A DNA stretch of 64,000 bases from Candidatus Latescibacterota bacterium (GCA_965116885.1 OZ220741.1:5344001-5408000), one strand, 5' to 3'. Shown: positions 1 to 14,032, counted from the stretch's first letter. The notes: a model not told the origin generated them from the sequence alone. Translations and numbers: made by a program.

Positions 1-588
1 AAGAGCAAGTGATTTCTGTGTTGGATGATCCACTTTCTCATCACGAAAACGCCTACCGGACAGAGTGGGAAATCGCCACACATCGCCCGCAAGCCTTCCT
101 TCTGGATGCGGCTTCCACTGTTTGCCATTTTTGGTGATTTTATGCTTCAATCGCTCCTTGCTCTTATAGGGTTCTCTGATCGGATGGTAAGTATAATCAT
201 CCCCTTTGGAGAACCAGAGAATCGGCTCATAATGAGCTGCCAAGTTCCTTTTGTTATATCCTGCAAACCCATTCTCATAATGCCAGATTATCTGCCTCCT
301 ATATGTGAGGCCAATCTCATACATATAACACTGAAGCCAGCACAAATGATGATGTATTCCATAAACAAAAATATTTCCACCTGGAGCTAGAACCCTCTTT
401 GCCTCACCAATCCATTTCTTACACCAGGGCAACCATTCATCTTTTCTTTCTGTTTCTTTCCAACTGCCAAAATCCTTCGCTAAATTATAAGGCGGATCGG
501 CAACAACCAGATGGAAAAATTCATCAGGCAGTTGTCTCATCCCTTCAATGCAATCTTGATTGTAAATCACATCAACGGGTGTGTCCAT
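1..588 (-). CDS. DNA methyltransferase (beta-class N6A/N4C), runs off the left edge
   Basis: Hand translation from ATG at 588: MDTPVDVIYNQDCIEGMRQLPDEFFHLVVADPPYNL...IIWHY...DVWRFP...DHPTQKS. DPPY catalytic motif and HPTQK motif. Absent from the ORF track because it has no stop in the window. Confidence 0.88.
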   Translation of the reverse strand, partial: MDTPVDVIYNQDCIEGMRQLPDEFFHLVVADPPYNLAKDFGSWKETERKDEWLPWCKKWIGEAKRVLAPGGNIFVYGIHHHLCWLQCYMYEIGLTYRRQIIWHYENGFAGYNKRNLAAHYEPILWFSKGDDYTYHPIREPYKSKERLKHKITKNGKQWKPHPEGRLAGDVWRFPTLSGRRFRDEKVDHPTQKSLAL

Positions 589-1441
589 TACTATTTCCTT
601 TTTTGTTTTGCAAAATAATTATAAACTGATGATGAATATTAGGGACATAGGCATAGGGATAACCATATGGAAAAATCCGCTTATGCCTTTGATACAATAC
701 TTTGATACCTCTCAGTTCCAAACTGTATTTTGCGAGTGCTTCAGCAAGATGGGCGTGAAACATGACATAATTGGATTTATTTCTGAAATCGCTTACAACA
801 ACAGCCATATATTTGTCCAATTTCAATACCCGACCACAAGCGCCTAAGATCAGGCTAAGTTCTTCCAAAAATTTAGTATAATCGGATATATTACCAAGGT
901 CCAACTCGCTATTACTGTATCTGGTATCTAGGCCATTGCTTCTTCTCTCCTGTCTCACTTTGTGGTCTTCTTTATGTAAAATATTCCAATAAGGAGGACT
1001 GGTTACCACGAAGTCAATACTATCCTCCGGTAATGTCTTGATGAGGTCCCTTGCATCACCGGTGAGAACTTGCTGTTCTTCTTTACTAGAAAAAAGATCT
1101 TTTATTTCGTTATCAAGCCTTTGCTTGGCAAGTTCAGCGTATTTAGGATTTAACTCAAATCCGATCCCCTTTCGTCTTTCAAGGGCACAGGCTTTCAAGG
1201 TTGAGCCTACTCCAACGAATGGATCTAGAACAGTGTCATCAGGTTTTGTGAAGAATCGGACCAGTCGAGCAACATCAGTAAAAGAAAATGGAGCGGGATG
1301 TTGTTTCTCAATTTGTGCATCAGGATGTTTAGCACCTAAACCTTTTTGTGTCCAGACAGACACAGTTTCTGGAATCCACTCTTTAGATGTAAGAGCGTTG
1401 AGCTTGTTGCGCGGGTCAGGAGCATTCTGATTTTCGGTCAC
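572..1441 (-). CDS. DNA methyltransferase, probable N4-cytosine
   Basis: HPAPF, VLDPFVGVGST (SAM-binding motif I), GFELNP and VVTSPPY (catalytic). Motif I precedes SPPY. Confidence 0.88.
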   Translation of the reverse strand: MTENQNAPDPRNKLNALTSKEWIPETVSVWTQKGLGAKHPDAQIEKQHPAPFSFTDVARLVRFFTKPDDTVLDPFVGVGSTLKACALERRKGIGFELNPKYAELAKQRLDNEIKDLFSSKEEQQVLTGDARDLIKTLPEDSIDFVVTSPPYWNILHKEDHKVRQERRSNGLDTRYSNSELDLGNISDYTKFLEELSLILGACGRVLKLDKYMAVVVSDFRNKSNYVMFHAHLAEALAKYSLELRGIKVLYQRHKRIFPYGYPYAYVPNIHHQFIIILQNKKGNSNGHTR

Positions 1442-2342
1442 TTTCCTCTACCTCCTTCAATAGCTTTTCTACAATCTTGCTCATTTGTTCTTCTTGCTTA
1501 TTTCTCCGAAGTTTATATATCCAATTAAATATCAGGGGGTCATTGCTACGCTTTTCGTAGATTTCATTTTGCAGATTTCGAGATTCAATTTCGAGCTGTG
1601 CATCCGATATTCTGCCATCAAGAGTATCGTCCCATAATTTGTCCACATATTCTTTTAAATCCTGTTGTCTTGATATAGAAGCATTGTGCGCCTTATATTG
1701 GTGTATTACCCAAAATATTGCCGGCATCAGAGGCAGTACGATTGCCATTAGCAATTTTTCTACAGTAAAACCTTCCCAGAGACCTAAAAGGAAGACAACT
1801 ACTATAAGACACCCAACAGCGACTGCAATGACTAGGGTATAAAACTTGCGTAATTCTGCATCCCACTGTAGATTTGCTCTCTGGCAAACGAAACGAGCTA
1901 AAGGCATTTGTAATTTCTGAACACCAACAGGATACCAATCTTTAAGTTTAATTTTTTTAGAATTTTTCCTATAATGTTTTGACGAATACTTAACGATTGT
2001 ATCTCGATCAGGATTTGGACCAACTTTCAAATCATACCATGGAAGTTCGAGAACCTTACAGTCGAATAGTTCCTTCATCTTTGCGCCTTTTTTTCGGAAC
2101 GAATCTATCCAAGATGTAAAGCCAAGACTATTAAAAAATGCTATGACAACACCATAATAAGCAGCATAAATTTTTAGGTCAAAATCCCACCAAGCAATCA
2201 GTATCAACCAAAAGGCAACAACGGGAATAGTAAGAATTATCCGCACAATTTCTAATATTTTGGCTTCTGAGTAAATCTGATGTTGGGCTGCCAGCATGTC
2301 GAGTTGTTGTTCATCATTTTGGATTTTGGGTATCTCGTTCAT
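1416..2342 (-). CDS. CBASS S-4TM (SMODS-associated 4TM, Cap16-like) membrane effector
   Basis: N-terminus QNDEQQLDMLAAQHQIYSEAK, ELFDC.VLELPW, LKDWY, CQRANLQWDAELR, SRNLQNEIY..R. Two pairs of TM helices; adjacent to a CD-NTase. Confidence 0.85.
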   Translation of the reverse strand: MNEIPKIQNDEQQLDMLAAQHQIYSEAKILEIVRIILTIPVVAFWLILIAWWDFDLKIYAAYYGVVIAFFNSLGFTSWIDSFRKKGAKMKELFDCKVLELPWYDLKVGPNPDRDTIVKYSSKHYRKNSKKIKLKDWYPVGVQKLQMPLARFVCQRANLQWDAELRKFYTLVIAVAVGCLIVVVFLLGLWEGFTVEKLLMAIVLPLMPAIFWVIHQYKAHNASISRQQDLKEYVDKLWDDTLDGRISDAQLEIESRNLQNEIYEKRSNDPLIFNWIYKLRRNKQEEQMSKIVEKLLKEVEESDRKSECS

Positions 2343-2398
2343 CTGATTATCCCATTTATCCGGAAATTTGGTATGGGACTTCCCTCGCCGAGAATTGT

Positions 2399-3406
2399 TT
2401 ACCTGTAAAGTAGTATATCAAACTGTGGAAACGCTGAACCAAATATATTCCTGTATTGTGCAATAGCTTGTTTGTGGTCATTTCGAAAAGCGGAAATGTA
2501 CGCATGACAAGCATCACCTTGATGCTCTCTTAGCCTTTCTATCGTCCTTTGTCGTACATCGTCGCTGAGATATTCATCAATCGGTGGTCCCAGTCCCTTT
2601 GGGTCTGGACAAGAACGATTCATAAAGTCCGGCGCGCTCGTAAAGACTCTAAAAATACCCTCTGCATAATCTTGAATAGGATTGGTACCGAGCAATGCGA
2701 GGCACATTACCTCAACGTGGTACGAACTTAAACGGTTCCTGTTTCTGCATTTGTTCCAGTATTTGATAAACATAATAATGTGAGAAGCCATCCCATTGTG
2801 AATTTTATTCGCAGCATGGACACGCGCTTTATCCAGATCAGGATTCGTGATTTTCCAGTCTCGGATATTGTGACCCATTGGAATACAATACCGAGGGGCA
2901 TCTATAAGAATCGGCTGAATGTAGAATGCTGGCACAATATCGATGGTGAACCCCAGCGAGGATAAATGGACCGTGATAGCCTGCCCATCTCTCCCGATTT
3001 TGGAATCAGGGTACGTAAGTTTGAGCGTATCTCTAAATTTGTTCAGCACCTTCACCGAATTGAGCATGCCATCCCAATCTAAGAGGTCGTAAAGCGGATT
3101 TGGTAACTTACCTGAACTCTCGATAATGGAAGGCACAATCTGTCCATTTTCAATATAGGAGAGACCACTGCCATCCATCACCGTAAAAACATCAATATCA
3201 TCTAAGGGGCTTATCTTTGTCCAGCGCACGGCTGAGCCAATTAAAAAGTCGCGTTGGATGCGCGGAAAAGATGGATCCCGGACATTGCGGTTGGCGAGTA
3301 CCTGGCGGATATAGTTATGAGAATCAGAGGCTTTTTGCCGTTCAAATTTGCTCGGGCTGATATTGCCGCAAAATTGCCGGAAAGCGGCATCGGTAGTGCT
3401 AGGCAT
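2399..3406 (-). CDS. cGAS/DncV-like nucleotidyltransferase (CD-NTase, SMODS domain)
   Basis: FLIGSAVRWTKISPLDDIDVF (GS...DID), IDIVPAF, WKITNP, IKYWN, LSSYHVE and DPKG motifs. Confidence 0.88.
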   Translation of the reverse strand: MPSTTDAAFRQFCGNISPSKFERQKASDSHNYIRQVLANRNVRDPSFPRIQRDFLIGSAVRWTKISPLDDIDVFTVMDGSGLSYIENGQIVPSIIESSGKLPNPLYDLLDWDGMLNSVKVLNKFRDTLKLTYPDSKIGRDGQAITVHLSSLGFTIDIVPAFYIQPILIDAPRYCIPMGHNIRDWKITNPDLDKARVHAANKIHNGMASHIIMFIKYWNKCRNRNRLSSYHVEVMCLALLGTNPIQDYAEGIFRVFTSAPDFMNRSCPDPKGLGPPIDEYLSDDVRQRTIERLREHQGDACHAYISAFRNDHKQAIAQYRNIFGSAFPQFDILLYR

Positions 3407-3500
3407 AGTTATACTCCTATAAGGTGGGGAGAGGTACTAATGAGTAAAGATAAGGGGAGAGAATAACTACAACCTATAGTGTAGGGAAGTAGATAGACAC

Positions 3501-3529
3501 AATTTATGGGATTGCACAGCAGTTGTCAA
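3501..3529 (-). promoter_or_regulatory. sigma70-type promoter of the CBASS/methyltransferase operon
   Basis: TTGACA-N17-TAAATT on the minus strand; AGGAG RBS before the ATG at 3406. Confidence 0.65.
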
Positions 3530-3596
3530 CCAATAAAAACTGAACAAATGGATAGGAGTTGTATCTAAGTATTTGTATATATTATCGTGTTGATAT

Positions 3597-4643
3597 TCAC
3601 TTCACTTTTTCAACAAACGGCCACATAAGATCGCTGTAGAAGCGGTGACCCGCGGCGCCGTAGTGGTGTTCTACGTGGTCGGGCACACCGGCGATCTCGT
3701 AGAGACGCGCGATGCCTTTGACTGCGCGATCGACTTCGGGCACAGGGAATAGCGTATCCTGTTTCCCATTCACAATACAGAGATGGCGCGGGGCAATAAG
3801 ACCTGTAACATCCCAAATTTCGCCAAAGCGCAAAATGCCGGGCACGCCATTGCAATCGCAATGGTGAATCAAACCACTGGTGCCCACAAGCGTACAAAAA
3901 GAACAACTTGGCACAGCAATAGTAATACGGGGATCAACCGCGGCGGCATAGCAGGTAATCACCCCACCGCCCGAATTGCCCATAACCAGAATCGTAGAGG
4001 TATCGATTTCGGGAATATCCTGTGCCCAATCAATAAGACGCATCACATCCCACACGCGCTCACCCGTTGCCGTGCGCCCGGCGAGCAAAGCATGCATGAA
4101 CTGGCTGCGGCAATCGCGGGCACCGTGGCGCTTGTTAATATCGGGAATAGCCGTAGTACTCGTACCGCGGGCAGCGGGCGCAATGGCGGCAAACCCGCGC
4201 CTGACCGCCTGAACAGCAACATCGCGGTCCTCCGTCTCGATCTTTTTTTGGTGATCGTCATCGCGCGCTTTCCCGATATACGTATCCATGCCGTATTTGT
4301 CGTGCCCGTGTGGCAAAACAGCGAGTGGAAAAGGCCCATCGCCCCTGGGTTTGAGATACCAGAACGGCAAGCCAAAACGCGGCTCGGTAGTAATCACACC
4401 GGGTTGCAACGTATAATCGCCCATATCTTGCGCTGCACCGAGTTGCACCTGAATCGTGTGATCGCCCAGAGACGCACCAATACTTTCGAGCCCCAGCATA
4501 TGCTGAAGCACCGGGCGCGCCTCCTCTTGCCATAGCAGAAAAGATTCGCGATCAGTCGCTCGACACGCGACATAGCGCAGTTCATCGGCATAAAGAGCGT
4601 CGAGATAGGTGCGGACAGCACCGCTGTGTTCAGGATGTTCCAT
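3597..4643 (-). CDS. alpha/beta hydrolase (dienelactone hydrolase/acetyl esterase-like)
   Basis: GNSGGG nucleophile elbow, D-x-L-F-P and C-terminal GHRF. Start reassigned to MEHPEH (4643) to avoid overlapping the divergent gene. Confidence 0.8.
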   Translation of the reverse strand: MEHPEHSGAVRTYLDALYADELRYVACRATDRESFLLWQEEARPVLQHMLGLESIGASLGDHTIQVQLGAAQDMGDYTLQPGVITTEPRFGLPFWYLKPRGDGPFPLAVLPHGHDKYGMDTYIGKARDDDHQKKIETEDRDVAVQAVRRGFAAIAPAARGTSTTAIPDINKRHGARDCRSQFMHALLAGRTATGERVWDVMRLIDWAQDIPEIDTSTILVMGNSGGGVITCYAAAVDPRITIAVPSCSFCTLVGTSGLIHHCDCNGVPGILRFGEIWDVTGLIAPRHLCIVNGKQDTLFPVPEVDRAVKGIARLYEIAGVPDHVEHHYGAAGHRFYSDLMWPFVEKVK

Positions 4644-11067: not shown

Positions 11068-11844
11068 ATGGAATCGGGTTCCGGAGCATTTAATTTTAAT
11101 CGCGTCAAAGTATGGTATCATTGCCCGCAAGACCGTCTTACCGACCTGCCAGTGGTATTTGTCCTGCACGGAGCCTCGCGCAATGCCAGCACCTATCGCG
11201 ACACCTGGGCCAGCCATGCCGATACGCACGGATTTTTGTTATTGTCTCCAGAATTTTCACAGGAGAATTATCCAGATGAAACAACGTTTAACCTCGGCAA
11301 TGTATTTGCCGAAGATGGCACGCGAAATGCCATGGCCGATTGGTCCTTTCAAATAATTGAAGGCATTTTTCACCACGTCAAAAAACAAGTGGGACTCCGG
11401 GCATCGTCCTATGGATTTTATGGACATTCGGCGGGCAGCCAGTTTGTACACCGATTTTTGTACTTCATGCCTCAGTCACATGCACACATCTTTGTAGCGG
11501 CCAACGCCGGATGGTACACCATGCCCACATTCAAACAGACCTATCCCTATGGACTGGCCGAATCGGGTCTGACGGCCACGGATTTGAAACGATCTCTGAA
11601 CCAGCGGGTTGTGGTACTCCTGGGCACTGATGATGTGGATGTAAACCACCCCAAATTGAGGCGCACACCACAGGCAATGATGCAGGGCGCACACCGCTTT
11701 GAACGCGGCCACACATTTTTTGAAACGGCAAAACGAGAAGCCGAAGCACTAAACGTGTCATTTAACTGGCAGTTGGACACAGTACCCAACGTGGGACACA
11801 ACAATGCGGGAATGGCAAAAGTAGGCGTTGAATATTTGGTGTGA
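11068..11844 (+). CDS. alpha/beta hydrolase (esterase/depolymerase-like)
   Basis: VLHGASRNA, GHSAG, ANAGWYT and VGH motifs. Confidence 0.78.
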   Translation: MESGSGAFNFNRVKVWYHCPQDRLTDLPVVFVLHGASRNASTYRDTWASHADTHGFLLLSPEFSQENYPDETTFNLGNVFAEDGTRNAMADWSFQIIEGIFHHVKKQVGLRASSYGFYGHSAGSQFVHRFLYFMPQSHAHIFVAANAGWYTMPTFKQTYPYGLAESGLTATDLKRSLNQRVVVLLGTDDVDVNHPKLRRTPQAMMQGAHRFERGHTFFETAKREAEALNVSFNWQLDTVPNVGHNNAGMAKVGVEYLV

Positions 11845-11846
11845 TC

Positions 11847-11909
11847 GTAGGGACAACCCCCTGTGGTTGTCCTTGTCCTAACGGGCGGGCACAGGGGCGC
11901 CGCCCCTAC
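11847..11909. repeat. REP-like GTAG-type inverted doublet
   Basis: GTAGGGACAACCCCCTGTGGTTGTCC...GGGCGGGCACAGGGGCGCCGCCCCTAC. The right half, reverse-complemented, matches 63709-63737. Confidence 0.75.
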
Positions 11910-11944
11910 CTTCTTACGTCTCACCTCTTACTGCTTGTTTTGCT

Positions 11945-11988
11945 AAACAAAAAAAGAATGGCCGCGATCCCTGTTATCGCGGCCATTT
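11945..11988 (-). terminator. intrinsic terminator
   Basis: AATGGCCGCGAT-loop-ATCGCGGCCATT followed by CTTTTTTT on the minus strand. Confidence 0.85.
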
Positions 11989-12292
11989 ATGTACTACAAG
12001 TCATGGAACCTCTTATGTCAGCCGATCGGGTGAGAGGCCCTAACACCCGACCGCTGGATACAGATTGGTGGCATAGTAACCTCCTCTTGTGCGTATTGCG
12101 GCCCGTCACGCCCACTCGCGGTCCGATGAACTCTCTATGCCCTGTATGTTTGCGCGAAGGTCTAAAGAACGGTATCCAAGTCGGGTTACCGAATGGCGGT
12201 AACGAGTCCGACGGAAAAAAAGACCAGATGTAAAAACACACGGGCGAGAACCTTTTCGAGCGGAATGCCGCCTGACGATTCATATCGCCTGT
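11945..12292 (-). ncRNA. candidate structured RNA (unknown family) containing an 18-codon mini-ORF
   Basis: Own promoter and terminator, several long helices and a predicted pseudoknot, no credible long ORF. Confidence 0.5.
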
Positions 12293-12299
12293 TATTTGA

Positions 12300-12329
12300 A
12301 ATATAACCCGATAAATTGTAGGATGTCAA
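12300..12329 (-). promoter_or_regulatory. sigma70-type promoter of the candidate RNA
   Basis: TTGACA-N18-TATATT. Confidence 0.6.
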
Positions 12330-12436
12330 GAGCCAATTTGAACTTTTTTATAAGTATCTTTAGACAAAATTATGTACTATATATCAATGCCCAATCCGCG
12401 CTAATCATTTTAGCCATAGAACAGGAGAACACAGAT

Positions 12437-14032
12437 ATGGGATATGGCAAACGAGAAGACCCGAAACTGTTTAACGACGAGCAAATGCGTCAATATATCG
12501 CAGACGGATACGTGGTTTTTAAACCAGATGTGCCCGATGACCTGCACGAGACAATTCGCCGAAAACTGCAATTTATGGTCGATGAAGAATTCAATTACGG
12601 CAACAACGTGCTGCCCCGCGTCCCCGAGATGGATCGTATCTTAAACAGCCCAGAAGTGCGGGGCGCGCTCATCAGCGTACTCGGCCCGGGATATATCGAA
12701 CACCCGCATCGGTTTTGTCACTACATCGCGCCCGACGCAACACACAGAACACTCGCCCAAAATTGTCATCAAGATTCTTACACCCCCCTGGGACGCCCGC
12801 GCCAACACTACCCGCGCTTTGCGCGCATCATGTACTATCCTCAGGACTCACCCGTTGAAATCGGTCCCACACACGCGATTCCCGGCACACAGTATCACAG
12901 GCGATTGACAGATGAAGACCGCCAGAACGCCATACCAATAGCCGGCAAAGCCGGCACAGTATCAATCACACACTTTGATGTGGGACACGCCGCAGGCATC
13001 AACGCACGTCGCCAACCCCGGCATATGATCAAATTCATTTACGTGCGCGCAGAAGAACCGACCGCCCCCTCGTGGGATTGCCGGGATCACATCTGGCGAA
13101 ACCCCGAAACATACAAAACACCGCATGATCTGCACCTGATCTGGTCGCATATATGGGATTGGCTCTGTGGCAAAAAGGACCGATACGAAAGTTTTCGCGC
13201 ATCAGACCCCGCAACTTGTGGATTGGAAGACCTGCATCACGACAACTTGGACAAACAACTCGCATCCATGCACTCGATAGCCGCGACAAAAAACACCGAT
13301 GCAATTCCAGCATTGATTCACAAGCTCAATACCGACGATCAGTGGACGCGCCTCGCAGCTATATATACCCTGGGCGCAATAGGTCAACCCGCAGTACAGC
13401 CTCTAATGGAAGCACTCTTAGACGCCGCTATGCATCAAGACGAGGACCCCGTACCCGCATCGTGGAACGAAGGCGCCATCTCGATGGAAGATGCCGCCCA
13501 TGCACTTGTCGCCATAGGCACACCTTCACTGGATCCTCTAATTGGACTACTGGACAACCCGAGCGAATGGACACGCATCAACGCGGCCTTCGCGCTCGGT
13601 GAAATGGATTCTCTGGCGACACAAGCCGTCCCTGCACTCACGCGCTGTCTGGACGATGCATCTCACTGCGTCGTGCGAACAGCTACAGATGCACTGGGCA
13701 GCATTCGGCAAAACAGCAAAGAATATATACCCGTACTCGAGCGGCTGCTCAAAGTGGGACGCCCCGAATGGCAAATGCCCGACCGACGCGACTGGACGCC
13801 CTATGACCAGGTCCGCGTCAACGCCGCAATGGCATTTACGCGCCTGGGCAAAGACGCCACATCTGCCGAAGCTCTCCTGCTCGACACATTATCCGATCCC
13901 AACGGTCACGTCGCTGCATTTGCCCTGGAAGCATTGCGGCGGATAGGCACGCCCTCGGCAATGGATGGCGTCATGGAATATCTGATGACGCGGCGGTGGG
14001 ATGAAAGCATTGAGAAAGGAAGACTATTTTGA
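12437..14032 (+). CDS. phytanoyl-CoA dioxygenase (PhyH) domain fused to HEAT repeats
   Basis: YIADGYVVF, CHQDS (HxD), YYPQD.P...GPT.AIPG, then HEAT repeats (R.NAAFALG, VVRTATDALG). AGGAG RBS. Confidence 0.8.
   Translation: MGYGKREDPKLFNDEQMRQYIADGYVVFKPDVPDDLHETIRRKLQFMVDEEFNYGNNVLPRVPEMDRILNSPEVRGALISVLGPGYIEHPHRFCHYIAPDATHRTLAQNCHQDSYTPLGRPRQHYPRFARIMYYPQDSPVEIGPTHAIPGTQYHRRLTDEDRQNAIPIAGKAGTVSITHFDVGHAAGINARRQPRHMIKFIYVRAEEPTAPSWDCRDHIWRNPETYKTPHDLHLIWSHIWDWLCGKKDRYESFRASDPATCGLEDLHHDNLDKQLASMHSIAATKNTDAIPALIHKLNTDDQWTRLAAIYTLGAIGQPAVQPLMEALLDAAMHQDEDPVPASWNEGAISMEDAAHALVAIGTPSLDPLIGLLDNPSEWTRINAAFALGEMDSLATQAVPALTRCLDDASHCVVRTATDALGSIRQNSKEYIPVLERLLKVGRPEWQMPDRRDWTPYDQVRVNAAMAFTRLGKDATSAEALLLDTLSDPNGHVAAFALEALRRIGTPSAMDGVMEYLMTRRWDESIEKGRLF

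Follow-up and report, generated by a model that had tools for sequence, protein, structure and literature searches.

At the left end of a 64,000-nucleotide stretch of the genome of a Candidatus Latescibacterota bacterium (GCA_965116885.1 OZ220741.1:5344001-5408000; the whole stretch, G000:C1:5344001-5408000, is called the window here), a Type I cyclic-oligonucleotide-based antiphage signaling system (CBASS) runs directly into a restriction-modification (RM) cassette that resembles those of Type IIS. The region is probably a case of two autonomous defense systems that have come to share one inserted block. Its two DNA methyltransferases, MT1 and MT2, are the modification half of the RM cassette and not accessories of CBASS; they adjoin an endonuclease of their own just outside the window, and in the loci surveyed beyond one shallow clade of close relatives the two halves are not linked.

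The CBASS pair and the two methyltransferases

The array consists of four open reading frames (ORFs) on the minus strand, with the gap and overlaps exactly as stated by an earlier, sequence-only reading of the window. The first gene encodes the CBASS cyclase, a CD-NTase (cGAS/DncV-like nucleotidyltransferase) of 335 amino acids (2399..3406), and is separated by 56 nucleotides (2343..2398, from the ORF positions) from the gene for a 308-residue S-4TM membrane effector (1416..2342). The 3' end of the effector gene shares 26 nucleotides (1416-1441) with the start of MT1 (289 residues; 572..1441), a permuted N6/N4 DNA methyltransferase whose GTG start codon follows the sequence AAGGAGG. MT1 in turn overlaps by 17 nucleotides (572-588) the gene for MT2, a beta-class DPPY methyltransferase. 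The first 196 residues of MT2 are encoded in the window (1..588); in the genome the protein has 268 residues, and the gene ends at G000:C1:5343782, past the window edge. The identities that had been proposed for the four products (CD-NTase, S-4TM, SPPY and DPPY methyltransferases) are borne out by Pfam and PADLOC and by motifs in the sequence.

A sigma-70-like, promoter-like site (TTGACA, 17 nucleotides, TAAATT; 10 of 12 consensus matches) lies on the minus strand upstream of the CD-NTase gene (3501..3529). The single promoter that the sequence-only reading had placed there is thus present at 3529-3501 as a consensus match, and its statement that the array holds no terminator also stands, as no terminator-like site occurs on the minus strand between the CD-NTase gene and MT2. 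Its further claim, that no promoter lies between the genes, is decided neither way by the scan. Seven weaker promoter-like matches fall inside the four genes on the same strand, and the region as a whole has no more such matches than expected by chance (20, vs 21.6 with a standard deviation of 4.3 in shuffled sequence; the host consensus may differ). Internal promoters are thus neither indicated by the scan nor argued against. Within the same limits of a chance-level scan and an assumed consensus, no promoter-like match is found within 700 nucleotides upstream of MT1. Because the effector and MT1 genes overlap by 26 nucleotides and leave no intergenic space, MT1 and MT2 are probably transcribed by read-through from the CBASS promoter.

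The CD-NTase matches PF18144 (SMODS; E 1e-16) and the PADLOC cyclase model (E 8e-56). Its active-site residues G57, S58, D70, D72 and D156, in the GS...DxD...D order, are invariant among 14 aligned homologs. The nearest solved chains are 6p82, 6p8u and 6p8j (E 2e-41), labeled only "Nucleotidyltransferase" in the database, which we take to be Pseudomonas CdnD. The S-4TM protein matches PF18159 over the full model (positions 1-291 of 291; E 8e-89) and the PADLOC 4TM effector (E 7e-99), and a gene of a CBASS effector family thus lies beside the CD-NTase gene, 56 nucleotides downstream on the same strand. No Cap2/Cap3, HORMA/TRIP13, QueC/TGT/glycosylase or other sensor-adaptor family was detected among the proteins of the island in Pfam, PADLOC and NCBIfam scans. 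By its gene content, the pair is a predicted Type I CBASS of the ordinary kind. On infection, the CD-NTase would synthesize a cyclic-nucleotide signal, after which the S-4TM effector would damage the membrane, resulting in abortive infection. Two-gene CBASS operons, those with a CD-NTase and a 4TM effector included, are enough for defense (bioRxiv 10.1101/2023.05.21.541620). With Type I operons such as EcCdnD12-4TM the pair shares the two-gene core, an intact cyclase active site, a full-length S-4TM protein and the lack of ancillary genes; unlike them, the last 26 nucleotides of its effector gene overlap the start of a methyltransferase gene, and the operon probably continues into an RM module. 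The CD-NTase belongs to a small clade of ten close clusters (58-100% identity), beyond which identity falls to about 30%, with relatives only 28-38% identical.

Both methyltransferases match PF01555 (N6_N4_Mtase; E 4e-25 and 5e-34). In MT1, motif I (DPFVGVGST) precedes SPPY, which is the permuted order, and in MT2 the DPPY motif is near the N-terminus. MT1 is probably an N4-methylcytosine (m4C) enzyme and MT2 probably an N6-methyladenine (m6A) enzyme, and each would protect one strand of an asymmetric site. The nearest solved relative of MT1 is 2zie (a "putative modification methylase"), followed by M.PvuII, and that of MT2 is M.MboIIA (1g60, E 3e-41). MboII is a Type IIS system. It employs one adenine and one cytosine methyltransferase (PMC3990576). 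The resemblance to MboII (M1.MboII, adenine; M2.MboII, cytosine) is closest for MT2, and the DPPY plus SPPY pair suits an adenine-plus-cytosine scheme at an asymmetric site; MT1 differs in having motif I before motif IV and in being nearest to 2zie.

MT1 has more than 7,289 homologs, and over a hundred clusters (formed at 90%) from many sources are 71-78% identical to it, a conservation that is unusually strong for an RM methyltransferase. Among plasmids, a tblastn search with MT1 returned 45 records, every one below 60% identity. Some relatives of MT1 carry an N-terminal XRE helix-turn-helix (P0048 and P0098, 445 residues; a 516-residue ORF in L108, 7272-8819), which suggests self-regulation.

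A split endonuclease beyond the window edge

The sequence-only reading had described methyltransferase pairs as typical of Type IIS RM systems and had advised looking for an endonuclease in the adjacent sequence. Both points hold. The additional 16 kb to the left of the window were inspected (L002, in which positions 19529-19501 correspond to window positions 3529-3501, and 11403-13217 to G000:C1:5339403-5341217), and a split, FokI/BspD6I-like enzyme adjoins MT2. It is encoded by two plus-strand genes outside the window, p349 (G000:C1 5341256-5342305) and p489 (G000:C1 5342302-5343771), that overlap each other by 4 nucleotides and converge on MT2, with 10 nucleotides between the p489 and MT2 stop codons. 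Tail-to-tail packing of this kind recurs in RM cassettes elsewhere (an 8-nucleotide overlap in L095).

That the two genes are parts of one enzyme follows from comparison with single-chain relatives. A search of 1.84 billion representatives with p489 recovered full-length proteins of 481-501 residues, single chains of 715-800 residues that end in a p489-like portion, and numerous shorter proteins (about 300-350 residues) that match the ferredoxin region and part of the sequence following it. One single chain, P0166 (722 residues), aligns at residues 13-314 with p349 (33% identity, E 5e-53), the alignment stopping exactly at the p349 C-terminus, and at residues 315-667 with p489 residues 3-391. 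As p349 and p489 match consecutive parts of P0166, the two genes together represent one enzyme in split form. The split form recurs, since stand-alone proteins of p489 size (481-501 residues; 36-86% identity) head four separate clusters at 50% identity.

The folds of both subunits were examined through AlphaFold models (pLDDT 85.3 for p349 and 86.5 for p489). Compared with 48,161 chains, the predicted model of p349 matches residues 1-282 of Nt.BspD6I (Z 18.1, root-mean-square deviation 3.0, 235 aligned residues), the BpuJI recognition domain (Z 13.9) and FokI (Z 11.7), with concordant results from Foldseek. The p489 model begins with a winged helix in its first 60 residues and matches the cleavage domain of Nt.BspD6I (residues 370-601; Z 11.5), FokI (Z 11.1), the small subunit of R.BspD6I (Z 9.8) and HindIII (Z 9.5); its best Foldseek match is FokI (E 7e-4). 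Across 31 homologs of p489, D304 does not vary, and E316 and K318 are almost invariant. In the models, then, p349 is a recognition module of the BspD6I/FokI type, and p489 is a winged helix followed by an eight-cysteine ferredoxin-type domain and a FokI-type PD-(D/E)XK cleavage domain. Two features of Type IIS systems are present: an endonuclease predicted to have the FokI/BspD6I fold, with recognition and PD-(D/E)XK cleavage in separate domains, and two methyltransferases linked to it. Together, p349 and p489 would constitute the endonuclease of the cassette.

The ferredoxin-type domain occupies residues 136-213 of p489 and contains eight cysteines in the pattern of a 2x[4Fe-4S] ferredoxin, four in a variant motif (C138, C141, C146, C166) and four in the canonical CxxCxxCxxxCP arrangement (C186, C189, C192, C196), all of them present in the consensus of the 31 homologs. 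Matches to Fer4 families of Pfam are mostly under the curated cut-offs, with PF00037 at 24.2 bits vs a cut-off of 21.1. Searched as a profile against PDB sequences, p489 matches only ferredoxin domains (polyferredoxins, E 4e-16), and the nuclease fold is visible from the model alone. The domain would be expected to bind iron-sulfur clusters, and redox sensing, DNA-charge sensing and a purely structural part are candidate roles.

Like FokI and the R.BspD6I enzyme with its Nt.BspD6I and small subunits (2ewf, 2p14, 1fok/2fok), the p349/p489 enzyme has separate recognition and PD-(D/E)XK modules, and, like R.BspD6I, it consists of two polypeptides accompanied by two methyltransferases. The division differs from that of BspD6I, in that it falls between the recognition domains and a third winged helix and does not yield a nickase and a small catalytic subunit. 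Unlike BspD6I and FokI, the enzyme shows one evident nuclease domain and places the eight-cysteine domain before it. In the titles and abstract openings returned by a full-text literature search, no description of a ferredoxin domain in a Type IIS enzyme was found, and PADLOC assigned no family to p349 or p489 (nor to p162, the product of a neighboring gene). The ferredoxin-carrying, Type IIS-like enzymes form a widespread and apparently undescribed family, of which the two-gene split is a third architecture. More common is a protein of 570-607 residues with a p349-like N-terminus and a nuclease domain at its end, accompanied by the ferredoxin domain in a separate protein of about 340-370 residues.

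The start of p349 deserves comment. The listed TTG codon coincides with a promoter-like site (TTGACC, 18 nucleotides, TATGAT; L002 13256-13343), pLDDT is only 51-59 over the first 50 residues of the model, and alignments with relatives begin no earlier than residue 52. Given the poor N-terminal model and the late alignment of homologs, the true start is probably an ATG at residue 19 or 30. A later start would leave 90-125 nucleotides of non-coding sequence and a possible promoter belonging to the endonuclease genes themselves.

Linkage among relatives and the insertion block

Which partners the methyltransferases and the cyclase keep in other genomes was surveyed from both directions. Homologs of MT1 at 50-67% identity were examined in 18 loci (3 in genomes, 15 on IMG/VR contigs; two pairs of them, L106/L107 and L118/L119, are near-duplicates). 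MT2 follows MT1 in 15 of these, and the three loci without it hold truncated MT1 genes. Genes like p489, p349 or both adjoin in 10 of the 18; in the other eight, the nucleases may be too diverged to be matched by a single-sequence query. Neither a CD-NTase nor an S-4TM gene is present in any of the 18. In these cassettes, 150-800 nucleotides usually separate the conserved core of MT1 from the end of the closest upstream ORF. This non-coding stretch, together with the XRE helix-turn-helix of some relatives, indicates that MT1 normally heads its own unit.

From the CBASS side, a single-protein scan of genome contigs with the CD-NTase found no relative, and an alignment query was then used, which recovered 80 loci at 28-38% identity from 185,579 species genomes. 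An S-4TM gene lies beside the CD-NTase gene in 34 of them. When the 80 loci were searched with MT1 and MT2 by phmmer (8 kb flanks), three matched, none with an adjacent methyltransferase. Downstream neighbors were assigned by a Pfam scan of the ORFs within 3 kb downstream of S-4TM in 31 loci (80 of 81 ORFs, the one dropped being a CD-NTase; L045, with its S-4TM match on the other strand, and L022 and L072, with no downstream ORFs, lie outside this set). A methyltransferase pair occurs within 3 kb downstream in 0 of the 31, and PF01555 itself in two, L039 and L040. A scan of metagenome contigs with an alignment of the close-clade CD-NTases returned seven loci at 24-31% identity and none of the close clade. 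One of the contigs, L087, has the same length as that of the close-clade protein P0007 (13,995 bp), but its CD-NTase is 25% identical, and the match in size was taken as coincidence. The sequence-only reading had offered, as one of two possibilities, a CBASS subtype with methyltransferases as ancillary genes, and this is not upheld by the 0 of 31 CBASS loci with the pair and the 0 of 18 MT1 loci with CBASS. No description of a CBASS-methyltransferase operon was found in the titles and abstract openings from a full-text literature search on CBASS with RM.

The two near-identical loci with PF01555 represent another instance, unrelated to the present one, in which CBASS reads into RM genes. In L039 (1397-7226; Flavobacterium metagenome-assembled genome, MAG) and L040 (8944-14776; Chitinophagales MAG), Type III Res (891 residues) and then Mod (696-697 residues) genes follow the CD-NTase and S-4TM genes by 120 nucleotides on the same strand. 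Another defense island with different neighbors is L095 (2263-6052, 10524-11794; genome G125), in which the RM cassette is situated beside HD-CE, ORC/CDC6-like and HFX_2341_N-like genes and an AbiEi-like regulator lies upstream of MT1.

The CBASS and RM genes entered the genome as one mobile, horizontally acquired block of about 6.4 kb, of which the genes in the window make up the right half. From the neighboring gene p440 through the CBASS promoter, GC content is low (about 0.37-0.45 vs 0.50-0.60 in the flanks). The site is empty in the congener G009, in which the flanking sulfatase gene is joined within 6 nucleotides to the stop codon of the abhydrolase gene on the other side, and G004 and G017 hold only homologs of p440 and p162 here (about 75% nucleotide identity). 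It follows that p349, p489, MT2, MT1, S-4TM and CD-NTase are one extra block. Its left boundary is at about G000:C1 5341218, outside the window; its right boundary is the abhydrolase stop codon (3597..3599, minus strand), with similarity to congeners resuming at 3596/3597. Promoter-like sites are present at both outer ends of the block, that at 3501-3529 being 67 nucleotides inside the right boundary. A search of 60 relatives, including 20 congeneric species, turned up no copy of the CD-NTase. For MT1, a copy was found in three of the 167 other genomes from the phylum and in none from the family, and a 401-genome sample of another phylum gave one match.

To the left of the block, p440 (G000:C1 5339403-5340725, plus strand) and p162 (G000:C1 5340729-5341217, plus strand) form the left end of the island, the p440 start overlapping the sulfatase stop codon by 4 nucleotides. 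The p440 product is an ATPase (AAA_15/AAA_21) that in PADLOC best matches NsnB (1e-40), PDC-M55A (5e-39) and AriA (2e-24); p162 (162 residues) has an ILDTN-type motif at its start and a weak PIN match (E 0.0017). An imperfect direct repeat (15/18, with an exact 8-nucleotide core) is present near the block ends (L002 13252-13270 and window 3606-3623). The right-hand copy falls within the abhydrolase gene, at its 3' end, and the block contains no integrase; the geometry does not fit a simple target-site duplication.

The junction clade and its rival explanations

Several observations weigh against regarding the junction of the two systems as incidental. The four genes form one physical unit in this genome, as the sequence-only reading had it, and a shallow clade retains the junction as well, so it is not a one-off. 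Relatives of the CD-NTase (78-100% identity) and of MT1 (about 96-100%) occur on contigs of the same eight sizes, with p489 relatives on two of these; co-occurrence was judged from the equal sizes of the contigs in bp and not from their DNA. The contigs are those of 5,561,361 bp (this genome; CD-NTase 100%, MT1 100%), 89,516 bp (98% and 97.6%), 15,326 bp (97% and 95.5%, both fragments), 300,992 bp (86% and 96.6%), 4,750 bp (86.7%, and 95.9% for an MT1 fragment), 18,136 bp (83% for a CD-NTase fragment, and 95.8%), 55,638 bp (82% and 96.5%) and 8,848 bp (78% for a CD-NTase fragment, and 96.9%). Relatives of p489 are listed for the 18,136-bp and 55,638-bp contigs (86% on each) and not for the other six. 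Of the fragments, two fit a contig edge inside the CD-NTase gene and two others resemble frameshifted calls. In addition, the S-4TM/MT1 junction is spanned by a contig from run X3, which belongs to a copy of about 94% identity. The fusion appears to have persisted through 14-18% divergence of the CD-NTase, which would also be expected under selection. Finally, expression of MT1 may depend on CBASS transcription, itself a form of co-regulation, because there is no intergenic space, no promoter-like match in the 700 nucleotides ahead of MT1, and a spacing upstream of MT1 elsewhere that is lacking here.

Divergence is uneven along the X3 copy (L002 13200-19600): the RM genes (endonuclease and methyltransferases) are about 91% identical, S-4TM about 94% and the CD-NTase gene about 98.7%. 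Variants of the block may have recombined, or the run may contain a mixture of strains. Other contigs show no match in size: further CD-NTase relatives, at 58-84% identity, are on contigs of sizes not listed for MT1, the nearest MT1 outgroup (88-90%, 8 contigs) is on contigs of sizes not listed for the CD-NTase, and for a contig of 149,308 bp that carries MT1 at 96.5% identity no CD-NTase is listed on a contig of equal size. For most clusters, the comparison covers the contig of the representative only. The non-matching contigs may point to a recent junction.

Two of the possible explanations give the junction a function. One is that the fusion is a selected, co-regulated CBASS/RM unit, in which RM "addicts" the cell to an intact CBASS, or in which restriction acts first and abortive infection second. 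The 26-nucleotide overlap, the lack of a terminator-like site and of a promoter-like match before MT1, and promoter-like sites that, the seven weaker internal matches apart, stand only at the outer ends of the block are all in keeping with such a unit, as are the eight size-matched contigs, the bridged copy in X3 and the habit of MT1 elsewhere of heading its own unit after a non-coding stretch. Nevertheless, a selected unit appears unlikely. The halves are autonomous elsewhere, as the counts of 0 of 18 and 0 of 31 attest; the junction clade is so shallow that descent from a common ancestor is explanation enough; for the nearest MT1 outgroup and the 149,308-bp contig, no CD-NTase relative is listed on a contig of their size; and the promoter scan is at chance level for a host whose consensus may differ. 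The more specific proposal that the RM cassette is an addiction module stabilizing CBASS, with deletion, silencing or polar disruption of CBASS leading to under-methylation and killing by the endonuclease, has, in our estimate, a slim chance of being correct. The other is that the methyltransferases are ancillary genes of a new CBASS subtype, or that CBASS is a PrrC-like guard that fires when RM is inhibited. Guardians of RM (PrrC, PARIS) are an established concept, and PrrC-EcoprrI and PARIS likewise place an abortive-infection module beside or within an RM locus (PMC12707154), but at the present locus all that speaks for this idea is that the genes are physically fused in this lineage. PrrC lies within the hsd locus and is restrained by the RM enzyme, whereas nothing here ties activation of the CD-NTase to the RM proteins, and, unlike PrrC and PARIS, the CBASS-RM association recurs only inside one shallow clade. 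Furthermore, the methyltransferases have their own conserved endonuclease partner, 29 of the 31 CD-NTase plus S-4TM loci have no PF01555 gene downstream, the clade pairs with S-4TM in the absence of an RM neighbor, and the island proteins include no Cap2/Cap3, HORMA/TRIP13 or other sensor-adaptor family. An ancillary or guarding relationship is therefore exceedingly improbable.

A different kind of explanation is that the RM half is decaying, with an inactive, split endonuclease and two orphan methyltransferases left behind CBASS. Single-chain relatives of 715-800 residues exist, and the same sequence is here divided exactly at the p349/p489 boundary. Yet both ORFs are intact, with their 4-nucleotide overlap and confident models; the catalytic D, E and K residues are present, as are all eight cysteines; four separate clusters of stand-alone p489-type proteins show the two-gene form to be conserved; and heterodimeric Type IIS enzymes are known, among them R.BspD6I, whose structures matched p489. 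Decay is thus very unlikely. The probable explanation remains that of two autonomous systems in one block, the CBASS pair having apparently been joined in this lineage directly to the front of MT1, with no space between them. With regard to what the sequence-only reading had set out as grounds for abandoning a CBASS/RM unit, the absence of recurring linkage is observed beyond the shallow clade, whereas independent transcription of the methyltransferases is not, the start of MT1 being inside the end of the S-4TM gene.

The region does not define a new type of CBASS, and MT1 and MT2 should not be counted as CBASS components in annotation. It provides a clean natural example of two defense systems of different logic brought together, with no spacer, on one mobile block of about 6.4 kb, and the arrangement makes it possible to test whether linkage to methyltransferases protects an upstream abortive-infection operon from loss. 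If the fusion is functional, the methyltransferases would be made only while the upstream CBASS genes are intact and transcribed. Deletions, insertion-sequence insertions and silencing of a costly abortive-infection system, which are normally selected, would then be lethal to the cell by way of the endonuclease.

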